Assembly: GCA_046485285.1 (NCBI GenBank) | Contig: JAWOHE010000070.1 | Span: forward strand, 1-16,082 | Length of the DNA: 16,082 nt | Source of the DNA: a bacterium | GTDB lineage: Bacteria; Hydrothermota; Tepidihabitantia; Tepidihabitantales; Tepidihabitantaceae | Reading direction: 5' to 3' | Part shown: piece after piece, positions 1,049-16,082 of the stretch | Position numbering within the stretch: the stretch's first letter is position 1 | Layout of the letters: each line of letters opens with the position of its first letter | Translations under genes and position numbers: made by a program | The notes under the pieces: model-generated | Told to the model about the DNA's origin: nothing | The model's input: the letters and a program-made list of their open reading frames with translations, nothing else | Database searches by the model: none

Positions 1049-2866
1049 TCAGGTCTCGCGGTAGTGTGAGGCCTGGGCCAGGTACATCCGGGCGTAGAGC
1101 TCGCCGAGCTCGAGCAGTTCATGGTGCGTTCCCTGTTCCCGGATCCGCCCCTTGTCGAGCACGTAGATGTAGTCGGCGAGCTGGACCGTTGAGAACCGGT
1201 GGCTGACGAGGACCGCGCTCCGGCCGTCGAGAACCCCGCGGAACTGCTCGAATAGTTCGGCCTCGGCAAGCGGGTCGAGCGCGCTGGTCGGCTCGTCGAG
1301 CACGACGAGCTGGGAGCGGCGCATGAACGCCCGGGCCAGCGCGACCTTCTGCCACTCGCCGATGCTCAGCTCGAGGCCGGACTCGAACCAGCGGCCGAGC
1401 GGCGTGTCGTAACCCTGGGGCAGGCGGCTTATTGCCGCGTCGGCCCCGGCGCGCTTCGCGGCCGCGACGATCCTCGCCCGGTCCGGCTCGGCCGCCGCGT
1501 CGCCGAGCCAGATGTTCTCCCAGGCCGGGAGCTGGTACTGGACGAAGTCCTGAAGGATGACGCTGACCTCCCGGCGCCAGCGGGCCGGCTCGAGCCGGCG
1601 GATGTCGATGCCGTCGACGGTGATCTGGCCGGTGCCGGGGTCGTAGAGCCGGCAGAGGAGCTTGACGAGCGTCGTCTTGCCCGAGCCGTTCGCGCCGACC
1701 AGCGCAACGACCTGGCCCGGGGCAATCGCCAGGCTGACCGCGTCGAGCGCCGGCCGGGAACTGCCCGGGTAGGCGAAGCTGACGCCTTCGAACGCGATGC
1801 CCCGCGCGAACCGTGCCGGGACCGGGAGCGGCTTCGCCGGCGCGGTGACCCTCGGCTGGAGGTCGAGGAACTCGTAGAAGTTGGCGAGGAAGAGGTTGTC
1901 CTCGTAGAGCCCGGCGAGGCCGGCGAGGATGGCCGAGAGCGAGTTGGCCGCGAGCTGGAAGGCCGAGTAGTACATCACCAGGCTGCCGATGGTGATCGTC
2001 CCCCGCCAGGTCTGCCAGGCGATGTAGACGAGCGTGCCGAAGGTGGCGACCGTCACCGCGGCCTGGGCGAGCAGGCCGGCCGCGCTGCGGCGCCGGGCCA
2101 GTACCAGCCTCGCCCGGCGCAGTTGCCGGCGGAGTTCGCGGTAGCGCTGGCGGAAGAGCGCGCCGATGTCGAAGAGCCGGAGTTCCTTGGCCGGGAACGA
2201 GTTCGTCAGCAGCCAGTGGTAGTACCAGGCCCGGCGTTCCTTCTCGGTCTGCTCACGCTCGAAACGGTAGAGCCGGCGCGCGTGGACCATCCGGACGACC
2301 GCGCCGGGCAGGGCGACGACGACGAGCACGAGGGCGACCAGCGGGCTGAGCGCGAAGAGCAGGCCGGCGATGCCGGCCAGCGAGACCGCGCCCCGGCCGA
2401 CCTGGACCAGCCGGTTGACGATGTTGACCGGCCGGTGCATCGCGTCACCCTGGGCCCGGTGGAGGGTGTCGTGGTAGCGGGGGTCCTCGTAGTAGCCGAG
2501 GTCCATCGCGACCGACTGGCCGTGGACGATGTCGGTCACCTTGTCGGACAGCACGAGCGACTGGGCCTGGCCGACGAGCTCGGCCAGCGAGTGCGCGATG
2601 GCGGTGAGGAGCGCCGCGGCCGCGGCAACGCCGACCCAGACGAGCACGCGCTGGAAGCCGGCCGGTCCGCTGCCGGCCGCGATGCCGGCCTGCAGCAGGT
2701 CGACGACCTGCTTGATGGCGTAGAGCCCGGCCAGCGGCAGGAGCCCCTGGACCGCGACGAGGGCCGCGTTGGCGACCGCGAGCCCGGGCGCGCTGGCCCA
2801 GACGAGGCGGACCGCCCGGTCGAGGCGCAGGCCCTTCCGGACCGGGTCCTTCGGCCTCGCGCTCAC
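1049..2866 (-). CDS. ABC exporter, fused permease/ATP-binding protein (probable RiPP exporter, no C39 peptidase domain)
   Basis: 605 aa. N-terminal transmembrane domain, Walker A GANGSGKTT, signature variant LSIGEWQ, Walker B/D-loop VVLDEPTSALD and H-loop SHR. GTGA overlap with the upstream gene. Confidence 0.95.
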   Translation of the reverse strand: MSARPKDPVRKGLRLDRAVRLVWASAPGLAVANAALVAVQGLLPLAGLYAIKQVVDLLQAGIAAGSGPAGFQRVLVWVGVAAAAALLTAIAHSLAELVGQAQSLVLSDKVTDIVHGQSVAMDLGYYEDPRYHDTLHRAQGDAMHRPVNIVNRLVQVGRGAVSLAGIAGLLFALSPLVALVLVVVALPGAVVRMVHARRLYRFEREQTEKERRAWYYHWLLTNSFPAKELRLFDIGALFRQRYRELRRQLRRARLVLARRRSAAGLLAQAAVTVATFGTLVYIAWQTWRGTITIGSLVMYYSAFQLAANSLSAILAGLAGLYEDNLFLANFYEFLDLQPRVTAPAKPLPVPARFARGIAFEGVSFAYPGSSRPALDAVSLAIAPGQVVALVGANGSGKTTLVKLLCRLYDPGTGQITVDGIDIRRLEPARWRREVSVILQDFVQYQLPAWENIWLGDAAAEPDRARIVAAAKRAGADAAISRLPQGYDTPLGRWFESGLELSIGEWQKVALARAFMRRSQLVVLDEPTSALDPLAEAELFEQFRGVLDGRSAVLVSHRFSTVQLADYIYVLDKGRIREQGTHHELLELGELYARMYLAQASHYRET

Positions 2867-4077
2867 GGCCTGCCCGTCCTGAGCCAGCGGACCAGCAGGT
2901 CTTCCCGGCCGCGCCGGGGGTTGTCGACCATCAGCCGGGCCTGGAGCCGGGCGTGAAGCCAGCCTGCCCGGATGCCGTCGCGGAGCCGCAGGGCATAGAA
3001 GCGGTAGAGATGACGTGCGGTACGGGATGCCGGGTACTTCACGGCCATCGCGTCACGAGAGAGGAAGACATGCTTCCAGACCAGCCTTACCAGGCCGCCA
3101 AGCGACCCGGCGCCCCGGCGGCCGGCGAGCGACCCGGGCGGGCGGTAGTCGGACCGGGCGAGAACGGTCTCGCGCGCGACCTCCAGGACGCGGGGCTCGA
3201 TACCGCCCGGCACGAGCTGTTCGAAGACGTCGCCCGGGACTTCGGCCCCGAGCAGGTCGCGGGCAAGGCCGAGCACGAGGCCCGTGTATCGCGTCGCGCC
3301 CCACTCGCGGGCCCGGCGCGCGAACCGTGGCCAGTCCAACTCGCCGCGGAAGCGGTGAACGGTCTCGGCGACGTCGCAGAGGACGTACGGCACCGCGAGG
3401 CCGTGACGATGGCTGAGATGCAGGCACAGGTGCAGGAGCAAGTCCTCTGGCGAGAGCGCGAGCACCTCGACGCCAGCTATCGCGGCCGGACGGGCCCGGT
3501 CCCAGAGCCCGGCAGCGGCCACTCTGAATGGCCCGGTCGGGCGTTCGATGGCCCAGTGAAGGTCAACGGCGAGGTCGCGAATGAAGAGCGTCGGGAGGCT
3601 GGCGTTCCTGCGGCAGTGTCGCTTGATGTCGACCGGGCGCGCGGAGGCACCGCCAGCGGCGAGCAGGACCGCCCGGGCTCTCGGCAGGTCGGCCTTCCGG
3701 ACCATCAGGTCGGCATCGCTCATCGGCCGGAGTGCGGCGTCGCCGTAGACCGCCTCCGCGAGGAACGCTCCCTTGAGCACGATGACCGGAATGCCGGTAT
3801 CGCGCAGGCCGGCGAGCACCGGCCGAAGGCGACGGTAGAAGCGGGTGTTCCTGCCGGCGCTGTCAAGGTAGGCCAGTCGCAGGCGCTCCCAGGCACCGGC
3901 CGGGACCCGGTCCCGCGCCGAGCCCTGCTTCAGGCGCCTGAAGAGCAGGGGCGCGAGGCGGAGGTGGGCGGCCGCGGCGACGAGGCCGTTCCAGTCGGCG
4001 GCCGGCTCAGAGCCGTCGAACAGGTGACGGAGCAACAGGCTGACCGGCCGGGTGTCGACGGCCGAGCGAGCGTTCAA
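2863..4077 (-). CDS. Nucleotidyltransferase family protein (NTP_transf_5-like)
   Basis: Motifs IPVIVLKG, LRPMSDADL (DxD), VDLHW and LSPEDLLLHLCLH. Paralog of 13936..15195. The TTG start overlaps the upstream stop (TTGA). Confidence 0.88.
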   Translation of the reverse strand: MNARSAVDTRPVSLLLRHLFDGSEPAADWNGLVAAAAHLRLAPLLFRRLKQGSARDRVPAGAWERLRLAYLDSAGRNTRFYRRLRPVLAGLRDTGIPVIVLKGAFLAEAVYGDAALRPMSDADLMVRKADLPRARAVLLAAGGASARPVDIKRHCRRNASLPTLFIRDLAVDLHWAIERPTGPFRVAAAGLWDRARPAAIAGVEVLALSPEDLLLHLCLHLSHRHGLAVPYVLCDVAETVHRFRGELDWPRFARRAREWGATRYTGLVLGLARDLLGAEVPGDVFEQLVPGGIEPRVLEVARETVLARSDYRPPGSLAGRRGAGSLGGLVRLVWKHVFLSRDAMAVKYPASRTARHLYRFYALRLRDGIRAGWLHARLQARLMVDNPRRGREDLLVRWLRTGRP

Positions 4078-5648
4078 TCCCGCGCTTCGCTGCCGGAGGC
4101 GAGACTGATAACGGCCTGCCTGAGGGTCTGCTCAGCCACGAACAGGTGGAACGGCGGCCGAATGTACCACCGCCTGAGCCGAAAGTCGTAGTGCCCGACC
4201 ACCTGCCCGCCCATCAGCAGTTTGAGGAACGCCCGGTAGCGGTTGCCGAAGCGCACCGGCCTGGGCCGGAGCCGTCGCGGGAGAAGGCGGTCGAACGGGC
4301 CGAGACCGGCAACAGCGCGGTACAGCGTGTGAGGGAGACGGCCCGCGCTTCTCCGGATGCCCCGGCCCAGGCGCACGCAGCGAAGGACAAGGAGACCTCG
4401 CCACCCGCCGTGGACAACCCGGCGCTTGTCTCCGCGCTGGGCGGCGATCACGCGGCCGGTGATGCTGTCGGCCGGCAGGACCCAGGTGTCATCTTCCCGG
4501 TTGTTGTCGCCGCGGGTGCGCAGGCCGCCCTGCGCATGGCCGGGGACCGGGGACCGGCGACTGACCGAGACTAAGCGGTGCACGACCGTCTTGCCGGTCT
4601 CGGGCGACCTGAAGCAGACGACGTCGCCCGGGCGCACCCGGGCCGGACCGTACGGCCTGACTTCGAGAAGGTCGGGCTCGTCGAGGGTGGGAAGCATGCT
4701 GGTGCCCGTGCAGACCACGCGCAACGCGTCGTCAGCCGTAAGCGAGTCGACCGACACCGGGTCCGGCCGGGGGGCGTCCACACAGGGACCGGGCAAGTCG
4801 CCGACGGGCAGGACCCGCTCGATTTCCTCCCAGAACCTGCCCTCGAGGCTGAACTTCAGCGACCAGGCCGGGATGGCCGCGGCAAGCCCCCGGGCAGTCC
4901 TCAGCGCCTCGATGCAGAGCCGGTGGATGACGTCGACGTCGTTCAGGACGAACAGCACTTCCCGGGCGAGTTCCTCCGCGGACTCCATCGCCAGGGCGGT
5001 CACCCGCGTACCGTGGAGCGGCTCGAGTCGGTCAAACGGCGACTGGTCGAGGAAGAAGAGCGCCCGGAGCGGAACGGCGCGCTCTACGGCCCAAGAGCCG
5101 CCCGGGCCACCATAGAGGAAACGGCTCCAGGTCGGCCAGGGGTGAGCCCAGAAACGGCCCCTGCCGTCGGGCACGACCAGCGTCATGTCGTCGGACAGCG
5201 AGCGCCAGGGCGCGGGCAGGCGGCGGCTGGCAGTGCTCTTGCCGACCTCGGCCGGCCCGCCCATTATGAAACCGCTCCCCCGGTACTCGGCCAGCGCGCC
5301 GTGGAACAGCATCCCGCCCCGGGCCAGGGTCTCGCGGGCAATGAAGGATGCGATTCGCCGCAGTTGGGCAACCCGGGTCTCCTTGTCTGTCGGCGGGGCA
5401 ATCCGACACGCGGCTGCGCCGGGCGTCTCCGGTCCCGTTCGGTCGGACTCACCGGACACGGCGACACACAACTCGCGCCCGGCCTCGCCCGGCCTGCCCG
5501 ACCGGCAGACTGAGCCCAACTGCATTACTCTGCCCAGTTCGGCCACGATCTCCGTGGCCTGGTCATCGGCCGGCCGAATGAGCCACCGCTGGCCATCGGC
5601 CAAGGCAAGTCTCAGCCCAAACAGCAAATACGATGGAGGTGCTGGCAT
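4074..5648 (-). CDS. scmC: ScmC-like HPr-kinase-type P-loop domain fused to a C-terminal S24/S26 (signal peptidase I-like) peptidase
   Basis: N-terminal half has FHGALAE, GPAEVGKST, LSDD and HPWPTWS. C-terminal half has GTSMLP (Ser codon 4698-4700), GDVVCF, VVHRL (His codon 4578-4580) and TRGDNN. Confidence 0.82.
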   Translation of the reverse strand: MPAPPSYLLFGLRLALADGQRWLIRPADDQATEIVAELGRVMQLGSVCRSGRPGEAGRELCVAVSGESDRTGPETPGAAACRIAPPTDKETRVAQLRRIASFIARETLARGGMLFHGALAEYRGSGFIMGGPAEVGKSTASRRLPAPWRSLSDDMTLVVPDGRGRFWAHPWPTWSRFLYGGPGGSWAVERAVPLRALFFLDQSPFDRLEPLHGTRVTALAMESAEELAREVLFVLNDVDVIHRLCIEALRTARGLAAAIPAWSLKFSLEGRFWEEIERVLPVGDLPGPCVDAPRPDPVSVDSLTADDALRVVCTGTSMLPTLDEPDLLEVRPYGPARVRPGDVVCFRSPETGKTVVHRLVSVSRRSPVPGHAQGGLRTRGDNNREDDTWVLPADSITGRVIAAQRGDKRRVVHGGWRGLLVLRCVRLGRGIRRSAGRLPHTLYRAVAGLGPFDRLLPRRLRPRPVRFGNRYRAFLKLLMGGQVVGHYDFRLRRWYIRPPFHLFVAEQTLRQAVISLASGSEARD

Positions 5649-5780: not shown

Positions 5781-5960
5781 CTAGAAGTTCTGTACGTTAG
5801 AACCGGCCAGGCAGCGGTTCTGGCCCAGAACGCCGAATCCGCTGGCGCATACGTCCTCATTGCCCTCAGGCCCGTCGCCGCACGAAAACGTGCCGGTCGT
5901 GGCATCACTCAGGCGGACGGCGCACGGCGCCGTGTACTTCAGGTCGTCAGACTGGCTCAT
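5781..5960 (-). CDS. RiPP precursor peptide 1 (59 aa, ScmA-like, 3x CxxG); not in the ORF track
   Basis: Manual translation: MSQSDDLKYTAPCAVRLSDATTGTFSCGDGPEGNEDVCASGFGVLGQNRCLAGSNVQNF*. RBS GGAGGT (5966-5971) is 5 nt before the ATG. It has its own promoter and aligns without gaps to precursor 2. Confidence 0.9.
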   Translation of the reverse strand: MSQSDDLKYTAPCAVRLSDATTGTFSCGDGPEGNEDVCASGFGVLGQNRCLAGSNVQNF

Positions 5961-6001
5961 CAGATACCTCCGTGGCGTTGGTTTTGCATCTGCCTGAATT
6001 C

Positions 6002-6030
6002 ATTGTACCCCCCCCCGGCCCTGCTGTCAA
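6002..6030 (-). promoter_or_regulatory. Sigma70-type promoter of precursor 1: TTGACA-17-TACAAT with G9 in the spacer
   Basis: -35 at 6025-6030, -10 at 6002-6007, spacer 6008-6024. Near-consensus in high-GC DNA and conserved upstream of precursor 2. Confidence 0.8.
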
Positions 6031-6078
6031 GAAAAACGGTGGGCCTTCCCCGTCCTCGGATTCACTGCCCGCGACGCT

Positions 6079-6376
6079 TCAATTCCCGGTCCTGCGCTGC
6101 GCCCGGGCAGGGGGAAACAGCCCGCGGCGGACCGCCTCGGCGCACAGAGGGCGGGGCGCAACCAGTTGTCCGCTCTGGACATGGTTGTCGGCCACACAGC
6201 CGGTCCGGCAAACCCGGGCGAATATGCACCGCGCGCAGATGCCCGGGAAGCTGTCCGGGTCGGCCAGGGCCCGGCGTAGACGGAGAACCGTCGGGTTGTT
6301 CAGCCAGATGTCGCGCACGCTGTCTTTGCCCGGTTGCCCGCATGCCACCTCGGGGCAGGTGGAGCCGATGCCGCAC
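6079..6376 (-). pseudogene. Duplicated 3' fragment of the scmF-like gene (SPASM region)
   Basis: 6095-6376 matches 7045-7326 at offset 950 with 10 mismatches in 282 bp by manual count. It lacks the radical SAM core and any clear start. Confidence 0.9.
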
Positions 6377-6394
6377 CGCGTTCCGCGGCCAGGC

Positions 6395-6548
6395 GCCCGA
6401 CCGGCAGACGGGGTCCAACTGCAGGATTGCGCCCAGCTCGGCGGCAAGCGCCGCGGCCCTGTCGTCAGCCGGCCGCAACGAGCCGCCGCTGGCCATCGGC
6501 GAGGACGAGTCTCAGGCCGCGGGATGGATGAGAGGGGCGTGCTGACAT
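6395..6548 (-). pseudogene. Frameshifted 5' remnant of a scmC-like gene
   Basis: From ATG 6548 it reads MSARPSHPSRGLRLVLADGQRRLV, then after a 1-nt insertion RPADDRAAALAAELGAILQLDPVCRSG. This matches the N-terminus of 4074..5648 (GLRLALADGQRWLIRPADDQATEIVAELGRVMQLGSVCRSG), about 73% nt identity by manual count. Confidence 0.85.
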
Positions 6549-6650
6549 CGGAGTCGACGCTGCACCTGCGTCAAACGACAAACCGGCCAGTTCGCCACTG
6601 GCCGGATACCATTCGCTACCTAATCAGTTGTCTTCTTCTGCCGGTGCAAC

Positions 6651-6678
6651 CGCGACGCGGCCGGGCATTCGCGTCGCG
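6651..6678 (-). terminator. 9-bp GC stem-loop immediately after the precursor 2 stop codon
   Basis: CGCGACGCG (6651-6659) pairs with CGCGTCGCG (6670-6678) around a 10-nt loop. No clear U-tract. Confidence 0.5.
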
Positions 6679-6855
6679 CTAGTTCTGGACGGTGGAGCCG
6701 GTGTTGCAGATGTTGATCTGCTGGACCGCGAACCCGCTCTCGCACAGGTCGGCGTTGCCATTGCGGCCGTTCGTGCACGCGAACGTGCCGGTCTGGGCAT
6801 CGCTCAGACGCACGGCACACGGAGCCATATATGTCGAATTGTCGGACTTCACCAC
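6679..6855 (-). CDS. RiPP precursor peptide 2 (58 aa, ScmA-like, 3x CxxG)
   Basis: Likely start is GTG at 6855, 5 nt after GGAGGT (6861-6866), inside track ORF 6679..6981. Sequence: MVKSDNSTYMAPCAVRLSDAQTGTFACTNGRNGNADLCESGFAVQQINICNTGSTVQN*. It is 35/58 identical to precursor 1. Confidence 0.9.
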   Translation of the reverse strand: MVKSDNSTYMAPCAVRLSDAQTGTFACTNGRNGNADLCESGFAVQQINICNTGSTVQN

Positions 6856-6952: not shown

Positions 6953-6981
6953 ATAATACCCCCCCCGGCGTCTGCTGTCAA
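6953..6981 (-). promoter_or_regulatory. Sigma70-type promoter of precursor 2: TTGACA-17-TATTAT with G8 in the spacer
   Basis: -35 at 6976-6981 (overlapping the scmF stop codon), -10 at 6953-6958. Confidence 0.78.
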
Positions 6982-8186
6982 GAGATACCTTCCTCGCCAC
7001 CGACCCGGGCTCCAGAGTCAACGCCGCCCGGGCTACCGGCCCGCCGCTGCGCCCGGGCAGGGGGAAAGAGCCCGCGGCGGACCGCCTCGGCGCACAGGGG
7101 ACGGGGCGCAACCAGTTGTCCGCTCTGGACATAGTTGTCGGCCACGCAGCCGGTCCGGCAAACCCGGGCGAATATGCACCGCGCGCAGATGCCCGGGAAG
7201 CTGTCCGGGTCGGCCAGGGCCCGGCGCAGACGGAGAACCGTCGGGTTGTTCAGCCAGATGTCGCGCACGCTGTCTTTGCCCAGTTGCCCGTATGTCAACT
7301 CGGGGCAGGTGGAGCCGATGCCGCACAGGGCGTACCGGTTCGTGCCGAGAATGCCCAGAATCCCGAGCACGCCGCAGTCACCGCAGGAACCGCCCGAGCG
7401 TCCCAGACGGCGGCGCGACGACAGGGCCGGGGGTATGTTGAGGATGACACCAACCGGCGCGCGCGGATGCAGATCCTCGTCAACGTAGCGCGCCAGCTCC
7501 ATCGTCTCGTCGAAGTCCAGGGCCTCGCCGCGCTCGTGCATCGTGATTCCGCGGCCGGTCCGGGTCACCGGGTTGAGCTTTACCGATGCCGCGCCGCGTT
7601 CCGCGGCCAGGAGCACGACCGGCTCGACCTGCGCGCGGTTCCCGCGGTGCACGCTCATGATGACCTGCGTGTTCTTGAACCCCGCATCCGCCAGGTGGGA
7701 AAGCCCTTTCAGGGCCGCGTCGAACGCGCCCTTGACGTTCCGAAAGGCGTCGTGGGTCCGGGCATCCGACCCGTCCAGGCTGACAGAAACAAAGGTGACC
7801 CGCGTCTTGTCCTTGAGGTGACGGGCGGTCTCGGCGGTCAGCAGGGTGCCGTTTGTCTCCATGAGGAGGCTCAGTCCCTCAGCGGTCAGCAGGTCGACGA
7901 CCTCCAGGAACCGGGGATGGAGCATCGGCTCGCCGCCGGTCAGCTTGGCCGAGCCCAGGCCTAGCGTCTTGCCTTCGCGCACCGCCTCGCGCAGGGAGTC
8001 CACGTCCACGCAGTCACCCGGGTCAGGCTTCCCGTCAATGAACCGGGGCACGATCCAGCAGTGACGGCAGCGCAGGTTGCAGCCGCTGGACAGGTAGATG
8101 TAGAACGAGCGCAGGGGGGGTACGCCCTCGGGCAGGTCAGGCGGCGGTGCCGGCGTCACGGGCGCGTCGGCCGGCTCACTCGGCAT
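6978..8186 (-). CDS. scmF: Radical SAM/SPASM peptide maturase, ScmF-like
   Basis: CNLRCRHCWI (CxxxCxxC), LTGGEP and ETNG. SPASM cysteines in CGVLGILGILG...ALCGIG...CARC...C...C...C. Position in the cassette fits. Confidence 0.85.
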   Translation of the reverse strand: MPSEPADAPVTPAPPPDLPEGVPPLRSFYIYLSSGCNLRCRHCWIVPRFIDGKPDPGDCVDVDSLREAVREGKTLGLGSAKLTGGEPMLHPRFLEVVDLLTAEGLSLLMETNGTLLTAETARHLKDKTRVTFVSVSLDGSDARTHDAFRNVKGAFDAALKGLSHLADAGFKNTQVIMSVHRGNRAQVEPVVLLAAERGAASVKLNPVTRTGRGITMHERGEALDFDETMELARYVDEDLHPRAPVGVILNIPPALSSRRRLGRSGGSCGDCGVLGILGILGTNRYALCGIGSTCPELTYGQLGKDSVRDIWLNNPTVLRLRRALADPDSFPGICARCIFARVCRTGCVADNYVQSGQLVAPRPLCAEAVRRGLFPPARAQRRAGSPGGVDSGARVGGEEGIS

Positions 8187-9321
8187 CTGGAGCCTCCTCG
8201 CCCTTGAAGATTCGATAGCAGACCAGCGGGTCGCGCGCGTTCAGCCTGCCGTACCGGGCCGCCACCGTCGCCGGGCAGCCGCCGGTGCAGAAGCCGGCAT
8301 AGCGGCAGTCCCGGCACTCGGGCAGGAACGAGAGCGGGATGTCGCGGCGGTAGCGCAAGGCGTTTATCGCCGGGCTCGAGCGCCAGGCCTCGGACAGGGA
8401 GTGCAGGCCGACGACGCCCATCACCAGCTTCGGCAGCAGGGAGCAGGGCACCATCGTGCCGTCGTGCAGTACCGCCATGTTCGAGAAGACGCAGCCACAG
8501 GCAGAGAGCGTGCCTCGTCCGGGCAGGCTGTCCCGGCCGTGCGCGAGCGAGTCCTCAATCACGGCGAAGCGCCGGGCCAGGTCCAGCGGGCCGGCCGAAG
8601 CGTTTATCCGGCCGTTGTACTTCTCGTTCAGCCTGGTCAGCGATGCCATCGCACGCCGGCGGTCGGCAGGGGTGAGGACAACGCTGCTGCCATCGCAGCG
8701 CGCCGAGCCCATTTGCGCGACCTCGTTGGTGCTGAAGCCCGCGAGCCCGACGTCCTCGAAGAGCAGGCGGGCGATGTTCTCGATGTCGTCGAGGTTGGCC
8801 CGGTTCACGGTGACGCGCACGGTCATCGGGAACCCGGCGCCCTTGAGCAGTCGCAGGCCGGCGAGCGCCCGGTCAAAGCTCTTCGGGGGACGGCTCCGGT
8901 CGTGGATTTCGGCCCGCGACCCGTCAATCGAGACCTGGATCGAATCCAGGCGCAGGCGGCGCTTGCCGACTGCGAAGGCCCGCAACGTGTCCTCGCTGAT
9001 GAGCGTGCCGTTGGTCAGTATCGAGTAGCGCATCCGATTGGCTATGATGCCGTCAATCAACTCGAAGAGGTCCTGCCGCATGAAGGTCTCGCCCCCAGAG
9101 AGTGACACGCGCTGGACCCCGAGCCGGCCCGCCTCCTCGAACAGGCCGTGCCAGCGCGCGGCCGGCATGTCGCTCAACGCCGCCATCTCGTCGGCGTAGA
9201 AGCAGTAGCGGCACTTGAGGTTACAGCGCCCGGTGATGGAGAGGTTCAACTGCCGCGGGGCGCGCGGCAGGCCGGGCGGCGGCACGGTCAGGTCAGGGAC
9301 CGGCGGGGCTTCAGTGCTCAT
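8176..9321 (-). CDS. scmE: Radical SAM/SPASM peptide maturase, ScmE-like
   Basis: ITGRCNLKCRYCF, LSGGE and LTNG. SPASM motifs CGC...DGTMVPC...CRDC...CTGGC...C. Confidence 0.85.
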   Translation of the reverse strand: MSTEAPPVPDLTVPPPGLPRAPRQLNLSITGRCNLKCRYCFYADEMAALSDMPAARWHGLFEEAGRLGVQRVSLSGGETFMRQDLFELIDGIIANRMRYSILTNGTLISEDTLRAFAVGKRRLRLDSIQVSIDGSRAEIHDRSRPPKSFDRALAGLRLLKGAGFPMTVRVTVNRANLDDIENIARLLFEDVGLAGFSTNEVAQMGSARCDGSSVVLTPADRRRAMASLTRLNEKYNGRINASAGPLDLARRFAVIEDSLAHGRDSLPGRGTLSACGCVFSNMAVLHDGTMVPCSLLPKLVMGVVGLHSLSEAWRSSPAINALRYRRDIPLSFLPECRDCRYAGFCTGGCPATVAARYGRLNARDPLVCYRIFKGEEAPDAE

Positions 9322-9595
9322 CAGGCGAGGCGATGATGAAGTCAGGAGTCAGCGACTGGATAAACTTCTCCGCGTCCTGCGCGGCCTGTTCCGGCGTCAC
9401 GTCCGGGTAGGTGGCCGCAACGTGGCCGGCAATCTCGGCAAGGGTCCGGGGCGCGGCGAGCAATGCCCAGATGGCACGGCCCGTGCGGTTGAGCAGGACG
9501 GTGTTGTCCTTGTCCGGGTTGTAGAGCATCGCCCCGTCCTCGCCCTCGTCGACGCAGGAGACAACGTCGCTCGCGCGGTAGGTTTTTTCGCTCAT
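9311..9595 (-). CDS. PqqD family RiPP recognition element (RRE)
   Basis: 94 aa. LYNPD...LLNRTGRAIWALL...TLAEI...Y...DAEKFIQSL is the PqqD-fold pattern. Confidence 0.88.
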   Translation of the reverse strand: MSEKTYRASDVVSCVDEGEDGAMLYNPDKDNTVLLNRTGRAIWALLAAPRTLAEIAGHVAATYPDVTPEQAAQDAEKFIQSLTPDFIIASPDEH

Positions 9596-9891
9596 CAGGC
9601 AGTATCCTCCAGCAGCACTTCTTGTCCGACAAAGCCCTCCTCGACCAGCTTCAACAGCAGGGCGCGGACGTCCTCGGCCACAGTGTCCGGCGCGTCCGGG
9701 AAGCGGCCGCGGATTTCGGCGACAATCTCCCCGGTCGTGCGCCAGCCGTCAACCAGGTTCCAGACCAGCGCCCCGGTGTGGTTCACGGCCATCGCGCCCG
9801 CGGTGTCCGGGTTCACCAGCAGGGTCCAGCCGTCAGCGCCTTCTTCCCGCACCACTGCCGGGTTGGCTATCGGCCGGTCCGGAACTGTCAT
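9595..9891 (-). CDS. scmD: PqqD family RRE, ScmD-like
   Basis: 98 aa. PIANPAVVREE...LVNPDT...VNHTGALVWNLVDG...DVRALLLKLVEEGFV. Confidence 0.85.
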   Translation of the reverse strand: MTVPDRPIANPAVVREEGADGWTLLVNPDTAGAMAVNHTGALVWNLVDGWRTTGEIVAEIRGRFPDAPDTVAEDVRALLLKLVEEGFVGQEVLLEDTA

Positions 9892-10162: not shown

Positions 10163-10342
10163 ATGGATGATCGAGACCGCAAGACCTGGCAGACGCCGAA
10201 GCTCAAGGTCCTCGCGAGGGTGAGGTCAGAGGAGAGAGTCTTGGAGGCCTGTAAGACCCCCATCAAGAACGGCCCGTCCGCAGCCGTGGCTTGCTACAAA
10301 GGCTCCTCGGGACAGGAGTGCGAAGTGATAGCCAATTCGTAG
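10163..10342 (+). CDS. RiPP precursor peptide 3 (59-60 aa; WxxPxL leader, 3 Cys, C-terminal Ser)
   Basis: MDDRDRKTWQTPKLKVLARVRSEERVLEACKTPIKNGPSAAVACYKGSSGQECEVIANS*. RBS GGAGGAGG at 10151-10158, alternative GTG start at 10160. First gene of the radical SAM operon. Confidence 0.85.
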   Translation: MDDRDRKTWQTPKLKVLARVRSEERVLEACKTPIKNGPSAAVACYKGSSGQECEVIANS

Positions 10343-10505
10343 CGGATCCTGCGACGTCAACACAAGCGGGAGCCTAGTCAGCAGAACCATCCTGACAGCC
10401 ATCTGCGATTCGACCGGCTGAAAAGGAGCCGTCTGCGGGTGGAGAGGCTGAATCCCCTGCCCGTTTCCTTGCCTGCCTCTTGTTCGCCGGTAGGGGCATC
10501 CTGAC

Positions 10506-11501
10506 ATGACGGATGACGCCCGGCTTGACCGCGTCCTTCCCGGCCCGCCGGCACCGGACCCGCGGAAGCCGGGGGCCCACCACCGCCTGTTCGGAATCGG
10601 TGGCATCACCATCCGGGTCGAGTCCGACCTGCCCTTCACCGACCGGACCTTCGACCCCAAGTTCCAGCAGTTCGAGCTCGACGGCCCGGGCCCTGACACG
10701 GTCACCATCCGCCACCACTTCGAACTGCCGGCAGTCGACCCCGACACCCTCGGCCGCGAGGTCTATCGCAAGCCGCCCTGGTCAATCTACCGCCGCGACA
10801 GTTGCTGGGTCTACCTCGGCGTCCTGCCCGAGGAGCTCGGCTCCGGCCTGTTCAAGGTCGCGGTCTTCAACGACGACCACTCGCTCGGCGACCTGTACCA
10901 CCCGGGCGACGGCGAGTTCCGCGAAGGCGGGCTCCACTCACTCACGATGTTCCCGACCGACCAGATTCTCCTCACGCCCCTGCTCGCCGACCGGCAGGCC
11001 TGCTTCCTCCACTCCGCCGGCGCAATCCTGAACCGCCAGGGCCTGCTCTTCGTCGGCCATTCCGAAGCCGGCAAGTCCACCACCCTGAAACTCATCAAGG
11101 ACCGGGCCGAAATCCTCTGCGACGACCGCAACATCGTCAGGCGAGAGACAGGCGAAGCCGGCAGTGCCGGGTGCGGGCACTCGCGTGGAACGCGAATCCG
11201 GGTCTACGGGACCTGGAGCCACGGCGAACTGCCTCAGGTCTCCCCGGCCTCGGCGCCGCTACGGGCAATCCTGTTCCTCGAGAAGTCCGGCGAGAACAGC
11301 CTGGCCCTGCTCGATGACCGCAGTGACATCCTCGGCCGCCTGCTCGGCTGTGTGATTCGGTCGCTGGAGACCCAGGGCTGGTGGCAGAAGACCCTCGGCG
11401 TGGTCGAGGCGCTCTGCCGCGAGGTCCCCTGCTACCTGATGCGGTTCGACAAGAGCGGACAAATCCTTGAACAGCTCGAGGCGCTGACGGAAGTCCGATG
11501 A
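10506..11501 (+). CDS. HPr-kinase-like P-loop protein (putative peptide kinase, ScmC/PadeK-related)
   Basis: FLHSAGA, Walker A GHSEAGKST, LCDD and YGTWSHG. Confidence 0.8.
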   Translation: MTDDARLDRVLPGPPAPDPRKPGAHHRLFGIGGITIRVESDLPFTDRTFDPKFQQFELDGPGPDTVTIRHHFELPAVDPDTLGREVYRKPPWSIYRRDSCWVYLGVLPEELGSGLFKVAVFNDDHSLGDLYHPGDGEFREGGLHSLTMFPTDQILLTPLLADRQACFLHSAGAILNRQGLLFVGHSEAGKSTTLKLIKDRAEILCDDRNIVRRETGEAGSAGCGHSRGTRIRVYGTWSHGELPQVSPASAPLRAILFLEKSGENSLALLDDRSDILGRLLGCVIRSLETQGWWQKTLGVVEALCREVPCYLMRFDKSGQILEQLEALTEVR

Positions 11502-12706
11502 CCGATGACCGACGACCGGTCTCCCCTGCCGCCTCTCGCTACGTCGAGCGGGTCCGGGACGACCAGCCCGAGCGCTGGCTGAAGCACCGGCCCCTGCTCG
11601 AGCGGTTCGACATCGAGCTGACCGAACGCTGCAACAACAACTGCATCCACTGCTACATCAACCTGCCGATGGCCAACCGCGCGGCCCGCGAGCGCGAGAT
11701 GCCTGCCGACAGGGTCAAGGCCATCCTGACCGAGGCCGCGGGCCTCGGCTGTGTGGCGGTGCGCTTCACCGGCGGCGAGCCGCTCCTGCGCGAGGACTTC
11801 GAAGACCTTTACCTCTTCGCCCGCCGGCTCGGGATGAAGGTGTCGCTCGCGACCAACGCCCGGCTCATCACGCCCGGTCTCGCCGACCTCTTCGCGCGGG
11901 TCCCTCCCCGGGAGCCGGTCGAGGTCACCGTCTACGGGATGAGGGCGGACTCCTGCGACGCCGTCACCCGCGTTCCGGGCTCGCACGCCGAGGCCCGGCG
12001 CGGCATTGAGCTGCTCACCGCCCGCGGGGTCCCGGTTGTCATCAAGGGCGCGGTCCTGCCACCGAACCTCGGTGAGTTGGACGAGATCGAGACCTGGACC
12101 GCCTCGCTTCCCGCGGTGGAACAGCCGCCGGCCTTCACGATGTTCTTTGACCTGCGCGGCCGTCGGGACTCGGACGCCCGGAACCGCCGGATTGCCGGAC
12201 TGCGCGTCTCGCCCGAGGCCGGCGTCGCCCTGCTGAACCGGCACCGCGAGCGCTACCTCGGCGATATGCGCCAGTTCTGCGCGAAGTTCATCGGCCCGCC
12301 CGGCGACCGACTGTTCACCTGCGGCGCCGGTCACGGGACCTGTGTCGACGCGTACGGCAGGGCGCAGGCCTGCCTCCTGCTCCGCCACCCGGCGACGGTC
12401 TACGACCTCGCGAACGGCACGCTCAGGGAGGCTCTCACCGTCTTCTTCCCGCGCTTGCGGGAGATGAAGGCCGCGAACCCGGACTACCTCGCCCGCTGTG
12501 CCCGCTGTTTTCTCAGGGGCCTGTGCGAGCAGTGCCCGGCCAAGTCTTGGGGCGAGCACGGCACCCTCGACACGCCGGTCGAGTACCTCTGCGAGGTCGC
12601 CCACGCCCAGGCGCGCGACCTCGGCCTGCTCGCGGAAGGCGAACAGGCCTGGGAAGTGACCGACTGGCGCGGCCGGGTCGAGAGGCTGAAGACCGATGAG
12701 GATTGA
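11498..12706 (+). CDS. Radical SAM/SPASM peptide maturase
   Basis: ELTERCNNNCIHC, FTGGEP and ATNA. SPASM motifs CGAG...AC...CARC...CEQCPA...YLC. Confidence 0.92.
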   Translation: MTDDRRPVSPAASRYVERVRDDQPERWLKHRPLLERFDIELTERCNNNCIHCYINLPMANRAAREREMPADRVKAILTEAAGLGCVAVRFTGGEPLLREDFEDLYLFARRLGMKVSLATNARLITPGLADLFARVPPREPVEVTVYGMRADSCDAVTRVPGSHAEARRGIELLTARGVPVVIKGAVLPPNLGELDEIETWTASLPAVEQPPAFTMFFDLRGRRDSDARNRRIAGLRVSPEAGVALLNRHRERYLGDMRQFCAKFIGPPGDRLFTCGAGHGTCVDAYGRAQACLLLRHPATVYDLANGTLREALTVFFPRLREMKAANPDYLARCARCFLRGLCEQCPAKSWGEHGTLDTPVEYLCEVAHAQARDLGLLAEGEQAWEVTDWRGRVERLKTDED

Positions 12707-13904
12707 CGGAGGACCGAAGACCGAAGACGGGCAGCCGGTCCCCGATCCCCGGTCGCCGGTCCCCGGTCATCCTTCTTCCGCCTACTCCTCATTGGTCCCT
12801 CTCCCCGGCTTCGAACTCTGGGACCGGATGAAGCAAAGGCACGCGCCGCTGGCCTTCGACATCGAGGTCACCGCCCGATGCAACAACGACTGCCGCCACT
12901 GCTACATCAACCTGCCGGCCGGCGACCCGGCCGCCCGGGCCGCCGAGCTCACGCCGGCCGAAATCGAGCGCATCGCCCGCGAGGCGGCGGGGATGGGCGC
13001 GCTGTGGTGCCTGCTGACCGGCGGCGAGCCGCTCCTGCGCGACGACTTCCCCGAGGTCTACCTCGGGCTGAAACGACTCGGGCTCCTCGTTTCGGTCTTC
13101 ACCAATGCCTGCCTGGTCAGACCCGAACACGTCGAGCTGTTCCGGAAGTACCCGCCGCGCGAACTCGAAGTCTCGGTCTACGGCGCAACCGAGGCGACCT
13201 ACGAACGGGTGACGCGCCGGCCCGGGTCGTTCCGCGCCTTCCGCCGCGGCCTCGACCTGCTGCTCGCCGGCGGCGTCAAGGTCCAGCTCAAGGCGATGGC
13301 CCTGCGCTCGAACGTCCACGAGTTCGCGGAGATCGGCCGCTTTTGCCGGGCGCGGACCGCGGACGACTACCGCTTCGACCCGCTCCTGCACCTGCGCTTT
13401 GACCGCGACGAGGCGCGCAACGCGGAAATCCGCGCCGAGCGGCTCTCGCCGGCCGAGGTCGCGGCGGTCGAGCGCGCGGACGCGGAACGGTTCGGGACGC
13501 TCAAAGAACACTGCAGCCAGCTCATCCTGCGCGAAGCCGCACGCGCGACCGGCAATCACCTGTTCCAGTGCGGCACGGGCCGGGACAGCTTCAGCGTCAG
13601 CTTCGACGGTCGGCTCCGGCTCTGCTCGTCGCTCTGGCACCCGGACACGGTCTATGACCTGCGCCGCGGTACGCTCGCCGACGCCTGGCACAACCACGTC
13701 CCCCGGGTGCGGGACCTGCGCTCGGACCGGCCGGACTTCCTCGCGCGCTGTCACGCCTGCCCGATTGCCAACCTCTGCCTCTGGTGCCCGGCCCACGCCT
13801 TCCTCGAAACCGGCGAGCTCGACGCCCCGGTCGACTACTTCTGCGAGGTCGCCCGCGCGCGGGTCGCCGGGCTAGGAGTAGTGGAACCGCCGGGCCAGGG
13901 CTGA
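12696..13904 (+). CDS. Radical SAM/SPASM peptide maturase (paralog of the preceding gene; start uncertain)
   Basis: EVTARCNNDCRHC, LTGGEP and FTNA. SPASM motifs CGTG...LC...CHAC...CLWCPA...YFC. The first ~25 aa derive from heptamer repeats; alternative ATG at 12828. Confidence 0.9.
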   Translation: MRIDGGPKTEDGQPVPDPRSPVPGHPSSAYSSLVPLPGFELWDRMKQRHAPLAFDIEVTARCNNDCRHCYINLPAGDPAARAAELTPAEIERIAREAAGMGALWCLLTGGEPLLRDDFPEVYLGLKRLGLLVSVFTNACLVRPEHVELFRKYPPRELEVSVYGATEATYERVTRRPGSFRAFRRGLDLLLAGGVKVQLKAMALRSNVHEFAEIGRFCRARTADDYRFDPLLHLRFDRDEARNAEIRAERLSPAEVAAVERADAERFGTLKEHCSQLILREAARATGNHLFQCGTGRDSFSVSFDGRLRLCSSLWHPDTVYDLRRGTLADAWHNHVPRVRDLRSDRPDFLARCHACPIANLCLWCPAHAFLETGELDAPVDYFCEVARARVAGLGVVEPPGQG

Positions 13905-13935
13905 GACAAAAGCAGGACCAGGGGCCGGGCCGGGT

Positions 13936-15195
13936 ATGGACTCCTCACCGCCAGCCTCCTCTTCTCCGCTCCTCCTCTGCCTGCAGGCGAGCCTCGAGCC
14001 GGGCCGGCCCGGCACGCCCCGCGACCCGGCCGGCTGGACAAGGGTCACCGACCTCGCCTGCCGGCAGGAACTCGCGCCTCTGCTCTACCACGAACTCGGG
14101 CAGGCCAGGCTCCGTGACCGGGTGCCGGGCCCGGACCTCGCGCGGCTCGAACGCGCCTACTACCTCAACGCGGACCGGAACATCCGTATCTACCGCGAGC
14201 TCCGGCCGGTTCTCGCCTGCCTGCGCGACTCGGACATCCCGGTCATCGTCCTTAAGGGCGCCCTGCTCGCCGAGGCGGTCTACGGCAACATCGCGCTCCG
14301 GACGATGGGCGACGTCGACCTGCTCGTGCCGAGGGCGGGGCTGGCGCGGGCCCGGGCGGCCCTCGTCGCGGCCGGTTGCGCGCACGCCGAAGGCGACATC
14401 GAGGCCGCCTGCCGGGTAAGCCACCAGCTTGACGCGTTCGTCGCCGAGGGCCTGTCCGTGGAAATCCACTGGACAATCGAAAGGCCGACCAGCCCCTTCG
14501 CCATCGACACCGCCGGCCTCTGGGCCCGGGCCCGGCCGGTCCGCGTTGCCGGCGTCGAGGTGCTGACCCTCTCCCCGGAGGACCTCCTGCTCCACCTCTG
14601 CCTGCACGTCGCCTACCACCACGGGCTCGCGGCCGGGCTCACGCCCTTCTGCGACATCGCCCGGGTGATTGAGTGCCATCGCGCCGGGCTCGACTGGCCC
14701 CGGCTCGCGCGAACGGCCGGTGACTGGGGTGCCGCGCGCCACGCCGGCCTCGCGCTCGAGCTTGCCCGCATCCTGCTCGGGGCCCGGGTCCCGCGCGAGG
14801 CGCTCGAGCGACTCGTCCCGGGCGGCATCAGCCCGACCCTGCTCGATACCGCCCGCGAATGCGTCCTCGCGTCCTCGTCTCTCCGACAATGGAAGCCCCG
14901 CTCGCTCTACGAGTTGTTCGGCGCCGAGTCGCCCGCCGACGGGCTCACGGTCGTCCGCCGGCGGCTGTTCATGTCGCGGGCCGGCCTGGCCGCGAGATAC
15001 TCGTCTGCGCGCGGTCAGCGACAGCCCGGCTCCCTCCGCGCGCGCTGGTTCGGGCACCTCGCGCGGTCCTGCTGGTCTTACTTCGTGAGACCGCGGCTCG
15101 CGCGACTCGGGTTGCTCGGCCGCGGGCACGACCGCGGCGTGGCGCTGGCGGACTGGCTGGGCCGGACCGGGACGCGCGACAACCAGTCGAGATAG
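13936..15195 (+). CDS. Nucleotidyltransferase family protein (NTP_transf_5-like)
   Basis: IPVIVLKG, LRTMGDVDL, VEIHWTIERPT and LSPEDLLLHLCLH. Close paralog of 2863..4077. Confidence 0.88.
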   Translation: MDSSPPASSSPLLLCLQASLEPGRPGTPRDPAGWTRVTDLACRQELAPLLYHELGQARLRDRVPGPDLARLERAYYLNADRNIRIYRELRPVLACLRDSDIPVIVLKGALLAEAVYGNIALRTMGDVDLLVPRAGLARARAALVAAGCAHAEGDIEAACRVSHQLDAFVAEGLSVEIHWTIERPTSPFAIDTAGLWARARPVRVAGVEVLTLSPEDLLLHLCLHVAYHHGLAAGLTPFCDIARVIECHRAGLDWPRLARTAGDWGAARHAGLALELARILLGARVPREALERLVPGGISPTLLDTARECVLASSSLRQWKPRSLYELFGAESPADGLTVVRRRLFMSRAGLAARYSSARGQRQPGSLRARWFGHLARSCWSYFVRPRLARLGLLGRGHDRGVALADWLGRTGTRDNQSR

Positions 15196-15266: not shown

Positions 15267-16082
15267 CTACTCCTTCACGTCCAGCCGGAACTCGCACCGG
15301 CGGTTCATGTGGTACAGCGCCGGGTTCGGCTCGACAATCCGCTCCTCACCGTAGCTTATCGTCGACAACAGCCCGGCATCGACTCCCAGCGAAACAAGGT
15401 ACGACTGCGCCGACAGCGCCCGCCGCATCCCCAGCGCCATGTTGTACTCGTTCGTCGCAATCGGACAGCAGTGACCCTCGATCATCACCTCCGGCCTCAG
15501 CCCCGCCTCGACCAGCGTCTGGATCGCCGCCGCGTTGCTCTTGAGTATCTCGGCGTCGCCCGGCCGGATGAACGACTTGTCCAGGTCGAAGTATATCGGC
15601 GCAAGCTCCGGCCGCTCCGGCTCCTCGACCACCGGCTCAGGCTCAGGCACCGGCTCAGGCTCGGGCACCGGCTCAGGCCGCGGCCGCCGCGTGTTGAGCT
15701 GGTACTCGAGCGCAACCGCAAACCGGCCAAAGCGCTGGCTGGCCTCCCTCGGCGTGAAGCCCTCGAGCTTGGTCACCGCAAGACCGATCCCGACCGGGCC
15801 GAACAGCAGCTTCATGCCCGCGTTCACGTCCCGGCCGTCGGCCTCGACCCCCAGCGTCACGTGCCGCCCGACGTTCACCTCGAGCCCGCCGAACAGCCCC
15901 ACCGCCCACCAGTGTGACGGCGTCGTCTTGTCGAAGAAGATGTCGGTGTTGACGTACCGGCCCCGGTCGTAGCCCACGAACCGCCCCCGGCCCGCCCCGA
16001 GATGCAGCCGGGCAAACGACGCCAAGGGCACGCTCCCGACCGCGAACGCCGAGAAGTTCTCGAACGTGCGGTCCTTCTTGCC
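15267..16082 (-). CDS. OmpA/Pal-type peptidoglycan-binding domain protein with an N-terminal beta-strand-rich region; 5'-partial
   Basis: IYFDLDKS, IEGHC, YNMALGMRRA, ISYGEE and NRRCEF. The frame stays open to the window end (GKKDRTFENFSAFAVGSV...). Confidence 0.9.
   Translation of the reverse strand, partial: GKKDRTFENFSAFAVGSVPLASFARLHLGAGRGRFVGYDRGRYVNTDIFFDKTTPSHWWAVGLFGGLEVNVGRHVTLGVEADGRDVNAGMKLLFGPVGIGLAVTKLEGFTPREASQRFGRFAVALEYQLNTRRPRPEPVPEPEPVPEPEPVVEEPERPELAPIYFDLDKSFIRPGDAEILKSNAAAIQTLVEAGLRPEVMIEGHCCPIATNEYNMALGMRRALSAQSYLVSLGVDAGLLSTISYGEERIVEPNPALYHMNRRCEFRLDVKE
15628..15678 (-). repeat. Coding 18-bp tandem repeat encoding a Pro/Glu linker (PEPVPEPEPVPEPEPV)
   Basis: Repeated accggctcaggctc(a/g)ggc units between the N-terminal region and the OmpA domain. 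Confidence 0.75.

Follow-up and report, generated by a model that had tools for sequence, protein, structure and literature searches.

The SynChlorMet (SCM) cassette is defined in silico in NCBIfam/TIGRFAMs by models for ScmA (TIGR04252), ScmC (TIGR04249), ScmD (TIGR04248), ScmE (TIGR04250) and ScmF (TIGR04251), and literature searches by name, accession and gene name found no experimental paper on it. Linear polyphosphorylated peptides (LPP; LppA/K/B/S/D/N) have been described by Popov et al. (Nat Commun 2026, PMC13381572) and belong with the RiPPs, peptides that are made on the ribosome and modified after translation. The same report shows experimentally that [Y/W]xxPx[L/V/I/F/A] is the motif bound by the discrete RiPP recognition elements (RREs) of lasso and LPP systems, that the peptidase LppS (catalytic Ser29, His68 and Asp93) cuts the leader only if it is presented by the RRE LppB, and that the LPP kinase places several phosphates on Ser3 of the core. 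Streptosactin/GggB and QmpB represent the type 2 sactipeptides, and streptosactin carries four-residue sactionine rings in an unnested donor-acceptor-donor-acceptor order (PMC9389541). Here, we describe a gene cluster related to these systems on contig JAWOHE010000070.1, a 16,082-base stretch (hereafter, the window) that is one whole contig within a metagenome-assembled genome of the bacterial phylum Hydrothermota (88% complete, with 2.34 Mb in 102 contigs). Two small genes of the cluster, pepA and pepB, encode true RiPP precursors of a SynChlorMet-like radical S-adenosylmethionine (SAM) pathway.

The pepA and pepB peptides align without gaps and are identical at 35 of 58 residues (60%, BLASTP E 1e-23). 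On the leader side they have in common Y9-x-A-P12, the stretch A11-P12-C13-A-V-R-L-S-D-A20 and T22-G-T-F25, and in the core C27xxG30, C38xS40G41, C50xxG53 and G53-S-x-V-Q-N58. An earlier note on this DNA had listed the shared leader and core features at identical positions, and translation and the gapless alignment place every one of them where it said; its leader motif is likewise correct as listed, except that a fourth cysteine, C13, which lies inside APCAVRL in both peptides, was overlooked. The leader of pepA spans approximately residues 1 to 20 or 22. At the C-terminal end, pepA has an extra F59 and pepB ends in Asn. The public gene call starts pepB at Met10 (P0005, 49 residues), losing the invariant Tyr of the leader. 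A GTG start at position 6855 is likely instead, because the orthologue of pepB in a related genome (G185) begins M-V-K.

Neither peptide matches any NCBIfam family at E ≤ 0.01 or any Pfam family. Searched on its own by word matching, pepA retrieved a single relative. A three-sequence profile recovered 17 proteins (E ≤ 0.001) from 1.84 billion representatives, and a 13-sequence profile recovered 98 proteins (E ≤ 0.01) among 6221 candidates from a 5.8-billion-protein collection. Five long proteins among the 17 (P0006, P0010, P0015, P0016 and P0019) were dropped, and on inspection P0006 and P0015 proved to be unrelated repeat proteins. All 98 proteins are metagenomic and either unnamed or called 'hypothetical protein', one being labelled candidate division WOR-3. 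The clusters of the ESM Atlas nearest to pepA are also unnamed 'hypothetical protein' sets, with scores of 0.89-0.90. A six-frame search of 272 genomes of the phylum gave matches in 45 genomes at E ≤ 1 and in nine at E ≤ 0.01, the window's own genome included, and all nine belong to the taxonomic family of the window. The family set used for all counts below consists of 97 peptides, including pepA and pepB and leaving out the truncated P0005, the degenerate P0021, P0066 and P0107, and long proteins.

The leader of this family is a near-invariant K-Y-E-A-P-R-A-V-R-L-S-D-A. With the tyrosine numbered 0, Tyr at 0 and Pro at +3 are present in 97/97 peptides, Arg at +7 and Leu at +8 in 96/97 each, Ala at +5 in 95/97, Asp at +10 in 94/97, Val at +6 in 93/97 and Arg at +4 in 91/97, the last being replaced by Cys in 5 peptides, pepA and pepB among them. 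The intervening positions are more relaxed (Glu at +1 in 70/97, Ala at +2 in 82/97, Ser, Ala or Gly at +9 in 89/97 and Ala at +11 in 67/97), and the leader continues with Thr at +13 (83/97) and Gly or Ala at +14 (96/97).

The core, by comparison with its leader, is a repeat. Three core cysteines are found in 74 peptides, four in 12, five in 6 and six in 5, and Gly stands at +3 of 295 of the 330 core cysteines (CxxG, 89%) and at +4 of another 32 (CxxxG), so that 3 have neither. Shuffled cores, in which Gly likewise makes up 15% of the residues, held a mean of 48 CxxG (standard deviation 6.1), and none of 1000 shuffles exceeded 68. Among the 108 cysteines of the 23 peptides that have four or more, 86 are CxxG and 19 CxxxG. 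Successive cysteines are 10-12 residues apart in 217 of 233 intervals, a period of about 11 residues, and the tail beyond the last one is 6-10 residues long in 90/97 peptides. Position +2 after Cys is Ser in 23%, Asn in 22% and Thr in 20% (65% together) and Asp in 8%; position -2 before Cys is Asn in 21% and Asp in 18% (39% together). On these counts, the core is a modular C-x-[S/N/T]-G repeat that most often takes the form of a triple CxxG scaffold. The earlier note had seen a triple CxxG core scaffold in the precursor pair and had named a lack of CxxG conservation among homologs as a refuting condition; conservation is borne out by the counts above and three units are indeed present in pepA and pepB, but the family extends from three to six.

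The peptide genes also keep constant company. The cassette comprises two PqqD genes, ScmE, ScmF, one or more precursors, a fusion of ScmC to an S26 signal peptidase (ScmC-S26), an NTP_transf_5 gene and an MsbA-like ATP-binding cassette (ABC) exporter, with the precursors placed between ScmF and the fusion (Table 1). Eight of the 10 related loci have these cassette genes surrounding the peptide. Twelve of the phylum's 272 genomes, all from one taxonomic family, carry an ScmE orthologue (E ≤ 1e-60), and in 11 of the 12 a peptide with the family leader adjoins ScmF directly upstream of the ScmC-S26 gene, an adjacency that upholds the proposal that the peptides are precursors of the Scm machinery. 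In the twelfth genome the contig stops inside ScmE. Another genome, G214, carries the peptide together with ScmF, ScmC-S26 and the ABC gene, its contig stopping short of ScmE. Wherever the contig extends far enough, the cassette includes both PqqD genes. Two orphan precursors with the same leader, L026 (G211:C129) and L027 (G213:C6), lie more than 10 kb from any cassette gene; in both G211 and G213, a separate contig holds the cassette and a precursor of its own. Several ScmC-S26 paralogues are found per locus in L030 (G215:C81) and L031 (G193:C1), at least three of them directly preceded by a precursor of their own.

ScmC, ScmD, ScmE and ScmF, the last three being names used in the earlier note, are the best NCBIfam matches of the proteins concerned. 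However, only ScmC exceeds its curated cut-off (100 bits for ScmD, 400 each for ScmE and ScmF, 125 for ScmC and 35 for ScmA), and the ScmE-like and ScmF-like proteins are therefore relatives and not equivalogs. Radical_SAM is matched in both and the Pfam SPASM domain in ScmE, and a CxxCx5CxxxC motif is visible in both sequences. The closest characterized relatives, all at low scores, are WgkB, StsB, AhbD, PqqE and MftC, with WgkB scoring highest for ScmE and AhbD and MftC for ScmF; the nearest solved structures are PqqE, SkfB and BlsE (E 1e-10 to 1e-13).

What ScmE and ScmF do to the core is suggested by the core itself. They would act on the repeated C-x-x-G units, three here and three to six in relatives, and the product would most likely be one small thioether ring per unit, because Cys and the Gly three residues on, at a fixed period, are the only universal core features. 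The leading candidate is a link from the Cys sulfur to the alpha-carbon of the +3 Gly, which would give a four-residue sactionine ring of the type 2 sactipeptide kind; by analogy with those peptides we advance this particular ring as a tentative proposal, with the chances against it. It coincides with the first of the two acceptors that the earlier note had suggested. The alpha-hydrogen of Gly is the most easily abstracted. Cys-rich cores beside SPASM-type maturases usually prove to carry thioethers. Examples of such cores are described in PMC9389541 and PMC13692751.

A related possibility is that the rings are ranthionines, in which each Cys sulfur is joined to a side-chain carbon and Gly serves as a turn former or recognition residue. 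The acceptor would then be the polar residue at +2 or the Asp or Asn at -2 of the next Cys (D36-V-C38 and N48-x-C50 in both peptides). Polar residues are frequent at both positions, NxxcB, PapB and CteB link Cys to the beta or gamma carbons of Asn, Asp and Thr (PMC9389541), and ranthionines are installed on a Cys-rich protein by a SPASM enzyme described in PMC13692751. However, neither position approaches invariance in the way that the +3 Gly does, and the -2 residue is highly variable in members with additional units, such that we regard ranthionines as unlikely.

Given that the top-scoring characterized relatives of ScmE and ScmF (WgkB, AhbD and MftC) are not thioether synthases, it is also conceivable that the two enzymes crosslink no Cys at all, and instead catalyse epimerization, C-C or C-O crosslinking or decarboxylation, leaving Cys free as metal ligands or recognition elements. 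A C-terminal aromatic residue (Phe, Trp or Tyr) is present in 39/97 peptides, Phe in 34 of these, which loosely recalls the C-terminal chemistry of the MftC type. Nevertheless, that residue is missing in pepB and many relatives, Cys and its +3 Gly are the sole universal core features, and the general experience with Cys-rich cores beside SPASM maturases points the other way; we consider this alternative decidedly improbable. An MftC-like reaction on the C-terminal aromatic residue was rejected as a specific candidate, given its presence in only that minority of peptides and the Asn at the end of pepB. Formation of thioethers stays the reading that we carry forward.

How the leader might be recognized is indicated by the two PqqD-family proteins. 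Against the ScmD model (TIGR04248) they score 62.3 and 32.2 bits, below the cut-off, and both pass Pfam PqqD. In a profile search of the PDB the best match of both is the LppB RRE, 9x8z (E 1.3e-5 for PqqD_1 and 0.02 for PqqD_2). ScmE and ScmF both have their CxxxCxxC motif in roughly the first 40 residues (near residue 36 in ScmF), which leaves no space for a fused RRE, so that this function presumably falls to the discrete PqqD proteins. The earlier note had taken YxxP to be an RRE-binding site, which finds support here by analogy to the motif of the lasso and LPP RREs and to LppB as the best solved match. A complex prediction for PqqD_1, PqqD_2 and the precursor, entered as alignments, scored 0.07 against a mark of 0.32, was run without controls, and is evidence neither way. 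One PqqD per leader type (YxAP of pepA and pepB, WQTP of the third precursor pepC described below) was considered as the main reason for two PqqD genes and was ruled out, as a pepC-type operon accompanies only one of nine two-PqqD cassettes (G185) within the fetched stretches. Two loci have four PqqD genes, arranged as two PqqD_1/PqqD_2 pairs, upstream of ScmE: L034 3274-4528 (G213:C307) and L035 3638-5035 (G211:C109).

The fusion protein downstream of the precursors combines three parts. Residues 81-280 form the ScmC domain (TIGR04249, 160.6 bits), residues from about 300 to 400 an archaeal/ER-type S26 signal peptidase (TIGR02228, E 1.9e-12; its profile matches human SEC11C at E 1.6e-9), and residues from about 400 to 524 (4074-4460, minus strand) a conserved domain of about 120 residues that has no Pfam or NCBIfam match and in which P439, Y443, G450-P451, R466-F467 and P499-F500, among others, are invariant. 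In 8/8 fusion homologues the P-loop G136-K-S-T, S317 (in GTSMxPT), R358 and D381 (in RTRGDN) are invariant, and H357 is kept in 7/8, the remaining paralogue (L030 10352-11920) having Arg in place of the catalytic His. The putative triad S317/H357/D381 is spaced by 40 and 24 residues, compared to 39 and 25 for S29/H68/D93 of LppS (PMC13381572). HPr kinases in the PDB are matched weakly (E 0.41-0.75), and ScmC is homologous to a neighbouring protein encoded on the plus strand (hhalign probability 93.9%) that itself matches HprK_rel_B at only 1.2e-4; on these weak matches ScmC is a candidate HprK-like P-loop kinase. AlphaFold2 applied to the fusion, from an eight-row alignment, gave a mean pLDDT (predicted local distance difference test) of 51.6, too poor for a fold search.

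By analogy with LPP, cleavage of the leader by an SpI-type peptidase is suggested by the presence of the fusion alongside the NTP transferase and the MsbA-like exporter. We expect the S26 domain to cut within S18-D-A-x-T-G23, where two sites are plausible: one after S-D-A, fitting the small -3/-1 rule of signal peptidases, and one after the conserved Thr, analogous to T-1 of LppA. Phosphorylation is, by the same analogy, a reasonable but unproven step. Could the product then be an LPP-type linear phosphorylated peptide, with ScmC phosphorylation and SpI cleavage as the primary events and the radical SAM change minor and secondary? The set of kinase-like protein, SpI, NTP transferase, MsbA-like pump and discrete RRE is the conserved core set of LPP (PMC13381572), in the relatives a precursor always has a ScmC-S26 gene immediately after it, and extra precursor/ScmC-S26 pairs occur. 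However, ScmE and ScmF are present in 11/11 complete cassettes with a peptide, the main text of the publication on LPP (PMC13381572) contains none of the terms 'radical', 'rSAM' and 'SPASM', and there is no conserved Ser at core position 3. Although this alternative is compatible with thioether formation and does not exclude it, as an account of the primary chemistry we think it very improbable.

Both precursor genes appear to be equipped for expression. Three promoter-like sites are found in the pepA/pepB region compared to 0.3 expected by shuffling, and of 15 precursor genes inspected here and in related genomes, 12 have an element of similar form (TTGACA / 16-18 nucleotide / TAnnnT) upstream. 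From these signals, each of pepA and pepB is predicted to be its own transcription unit, and two separately promoted genes could give two products, in keeping with the two congeners that had been proposed. A run of G ends the promoter spacer just before the -10 hexamer, nine G at pepA and eight at pepB, and spacer runs of 5-9 G are also seen in related loci (L022, L024, L028, L030, L034 and L035). It is conceivable that slippage in the homopolymer alters spacer length and switches precursor expression on and off.

The stretch that separates pepB from pepA contains a leftover piece of scmF, derived from its 3' part. Positions 6086-6376 (291 nucleotides) are 95.5-96% identical to 7036-7326 and positions 6365-6405 (41 nucleotides) are 93% identical to 7583-7623, with the intervening scmF stretch deleted. 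In contrast, the pepA and pepB genes are only 66% identical (114/174), at 80% over codons 9-25 and 62% over codons 26-58, and 15 of the 34 codons that specify the same residue differ silently. Each has a closer relative elsewhere, pepA being 80% identical to P0004 and pepB 79% identical to the sole precursor of G185. Given this low DNA identity, the silent codon changes and the closer relatives elsewhere, pepA and pepB are old paralogues or alleles under purifying selection, and the rearrangement is far younger than the paralogy because the remnant is so much more similar to its source than the peptide genes are to each other. Therefore, a much later rearrangement that carried a piece of scmF along appears to have placed pepA and pepB side by side. 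Related genomes have one, two or three precursors, and the pair therefore represents alternative substrates and no obligatory two-component system. The scmF remnant, as a sign of regional rearrangement, could also be taken to mean that pepA and pepB are chance open reading frames or dead copies that yield no product. We give almost no credence to this, as both frames are intact and keep every invariant residue of the family, each gene has a promoter-like site and a ribosome-binding site, and the silent differences follow the pattern of purifying selection.

Taken together, we favor with moderate confidence an account of five steps in which pepA and pepB are separately promoted precursors of one RiPP pathway. 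The leader K-Y-x-A-P-x-A-V-R-L-S-D-A would be bound as a beta-strand by one or both PqqD-type RREs, with contacts expected at Y9, P12, A14 and L17 by analogy to known RREs, and ScmE and ScmF, having no RRE domain of their own, would depend on these discrete RREs. ScmE and ScmF would then modify the C-x-x-G units as set out above. Next, the ScmC domain and NTP_transf_5 may add a phosphate-based decoration to Ser or Thr, following the LPP precedent, and the fused S26 domain (Ser317/His357/Asp381) would remove the leader within S-D-A-x-T-[G/A] while the RRE presents it. Finally, the MsbA-like ABC protein would export the product; no peptidase family is among the NCBIfam and Pfam matches listed for this exporter (1049..2866). 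The genes, their conservation and adjacency and the statistics of the motifs are observed, and the chemistry of the five steps is proposed on that basis.

Several points weigh against this account. ScmD, ScmE and ScmF fall short of their NCBIfam cut-offs and the peptides lack an ScmA match. The nearest characterized relatives of ScmE and ScmF catalyse very different reactions, so that thioether formation does not follow from sequence. For ScmC, the HprK-like assignment hangs on a weak chain of matches, and, unlike LppA, the family conserves neither Ser nor Thr at core position 3. The account also does not explain why radical SAM enzymes and RREs come in twos, although the radical SAM enzymes may use one RRE and the kinase-peptidase fusion the other. 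In addition, the family profile includes the Cys and Gly columns, and part of the CxxG excess is therefore ascertainment; nevertheless, the excess is more than ascertainment because the multi-unit members match the profile mainly through the leader.

Carried to its full extent, the proposal would describe a new RiPP class with three to six evenly spaced four-residue rings from Cys sulfur to Gly alpha-carbon, one per 11-residue module, made by two radical SAM enzymes with two RREs, and then phosphorylated and released by an LPP-type kinase-signal-peptidase fusion. We hold this complete version to be doubtful. If true, radical-SAM crosslinking and the LPP pathway would here be combined for the first time, and the hybrid would come from an uncultured candidate phylum.

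Table 1. Positions of precursor genes, cassette genes and transcription signals in the window
Feature	Position	Strand	Basis
MsbA-like ABC exporter, 605 residues	1049..2866	-	NCBIfam and Pfam scans
NTP_transf_5 nucleotidyltransferase-fold protein	2863..4077	-	PF14907, 198 bits
ScmC-S26 fusion protein, 524 residues	4074..5648	-	TIGR04249 and TIGR02228 matches, invariant residues
pepA precursor, 59 residues, ATG start	5781..5960	-	Translation, GGAGGT 6 nucleotides upstream, family membership
pepA promoter, sigma-70-like, TTGACA-17 nucleotides-TACAAT	6002..6030	-	11/12 matches
scmF 3'-part remnant with internal deletion, between pepB and pepA	6086..6405	-	DNA identity to scmF
Terminator-like hairpin and T-run, 3' of pepB	6583..6605	-	1 found, 0.9 expected by shuffling (weak alone)
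pepB precursor, 58 residues, GTG start	6679..6855	-	GGAGGT then six bases to GTG; G185 orthologue
pepB promoter, sigma-70-like, TTGACA-17 nucleotides-TATTAT	6953..6981	-	11/12 matches
ScmF-like radical SAM/SPASM enzyme	6978..8186	-	TIGR04251, 351.4 bits (cut-off 400)
ScmE-like radical SAM/SPASM enzyme	8176..9321	-	TIGR04250, 370.3 bits (cut-off 400); Pfam Radical_SAM and SPASM
PqqD_2, putative discrete RRE	9311..9595	-	PF05402, 53 bits; best PDB match 9x8z_B, E 0.02
PqqD_1, putative discrete RRE, best ScmD match	9595..9891	-	TIGR04248, 62.3 bits (cut-off 100); 9x8z_B, E 1.3e-5
pepC, third precursor	10163-10342	+	W-Q-T-P-K-L-K-V-L leader, three Cys, C-terminal Ser
HprK-like protein	10506-11501	+	HprK_rel_B match, 1.2e-4
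Two further radical SAM/SPASM enzymes	11498-12706, 12696-13904	+	
Second NTP_transf_5 gene	13936-15195	+	

A second RiPP operon, divergent from the first, occupies 10163-15195 on the plus strand and opens with pepC. The pepC peptide matches the ScmA model weakly (17.3 bits, cut-off 35), its homologue in G185 likewise ends in Ser, and the operon has no PqqD gene of its own. The adjacent Y-type and W-type leaders recall the Y/W discrimination reported in PMC13381572. The edge of the cluster is marked by an ordinary Pal/OmpA-like lipoprotein with a Pro-Glu-rich linker (15267-16031, minus strand), and a similar gene flanks the G212 cassette.

SynChlorMet has been listed in protein-family databases as a predicted peptide-modification system, and the family described here supplies it with a substrate that follows a countable rule. 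One C-x-x-G per 10-12 residues, three to six units and a near-invariant leader make the enzymology directly testable. The cluster unites radical SAM/SPASM maturases with a module of kinase, archaeal-type signal peptidase, NTP transferase and MsbA-like exporter, which have so far been described apart. If small thioether rings do form at every unit, engineers would find the modular core an attractive scaffold. Natural-product leads from uncultured lineages are rare, and this would be one.

Compared to the SynChlorMet cassette as defined, the locus has the two radical SAM/SPASM enzymes, the PqqD-family proteins, ScmC, which is the sole Scm protein above its NCBIfam threshold, and a small adjacent precursor. 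It differs in that ScmD, ScmE and ScmF are below the cut-offs, there are two PqqD genes, ScmC is fused to the S26 peptidase and a further domain, NTP_transf_5 and the ABC exporter are part of the conserved set, and pepA and pepB do not match ScmA (hhalign of the family against the ScmA-like pepC gives a probability of 1.4%). By NCBIfam thresholds the cassette is best described as a relative of SynChlorMet rather than a member.

The parallels with LPP include a YxxP-type leader with a discrete RRE for which LppB is the best solved match, an archaeal-type signal peptidase with a predicted Ser/His/Asp triad, a P-loop kinase-like protein, an NTP transferase and a pump that resembles MsbA. However, the kinase-like protein and the peptidase are one polypeptide in this cassette, the core is a Cys-Gly repeat, the phylum is another one, and the residues downstream of YxxP are AVRLSDA here and VLxHQxIxFET in LPP. 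The two conserved radical SAM/SPASM enzymes also set the locus apart from a pathway characterized as linear and free of cyclizing enzymes.

A SPASM-type radical SAM enzyme is shared with the type 2 sactipeptides, and a C-x-x-G link, if formed as proposed, would match the ring size of streptosactin; here, by contrast, three to six units recur with an 11-residue period and are served by two enzymes, discrete RREs and kinase/peptidase tailoring. The ranthipeptides (PapB with CxxxD, NxxcB with NxxC, and CteB) and CrpA/CrpC have in common with this family a Cys-rich core, SPASM enzymes and short repeated Cys motifs, but the conserved partner here is the +3 Gly, which has no side chain and so offers no beta or gamma acceptor. 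Lasso peptides differ in their macrolactam synthetase (C) and B2 cysteine peptidase, neither of which is among the NCBIfam and Pfam matches of the 14 larger genes and 3 small open reading frames scanned. Our searches found no paper on a CxxG radical-SAM peptide. Neither Scm, TIGR0425 nor HPr is mentioned in PMC10288494, its supplementary data apart, and the cassette might be listed in the supplementary tables of PMC13381572 or of PMC10288494 (about 15,000 radical SAM proteins). Although genome mining often yields clusters of this general kind, the locus is a radical-SAM RiPP cluster that combines an undescribed precursor family with an undescribed fusion of modules.

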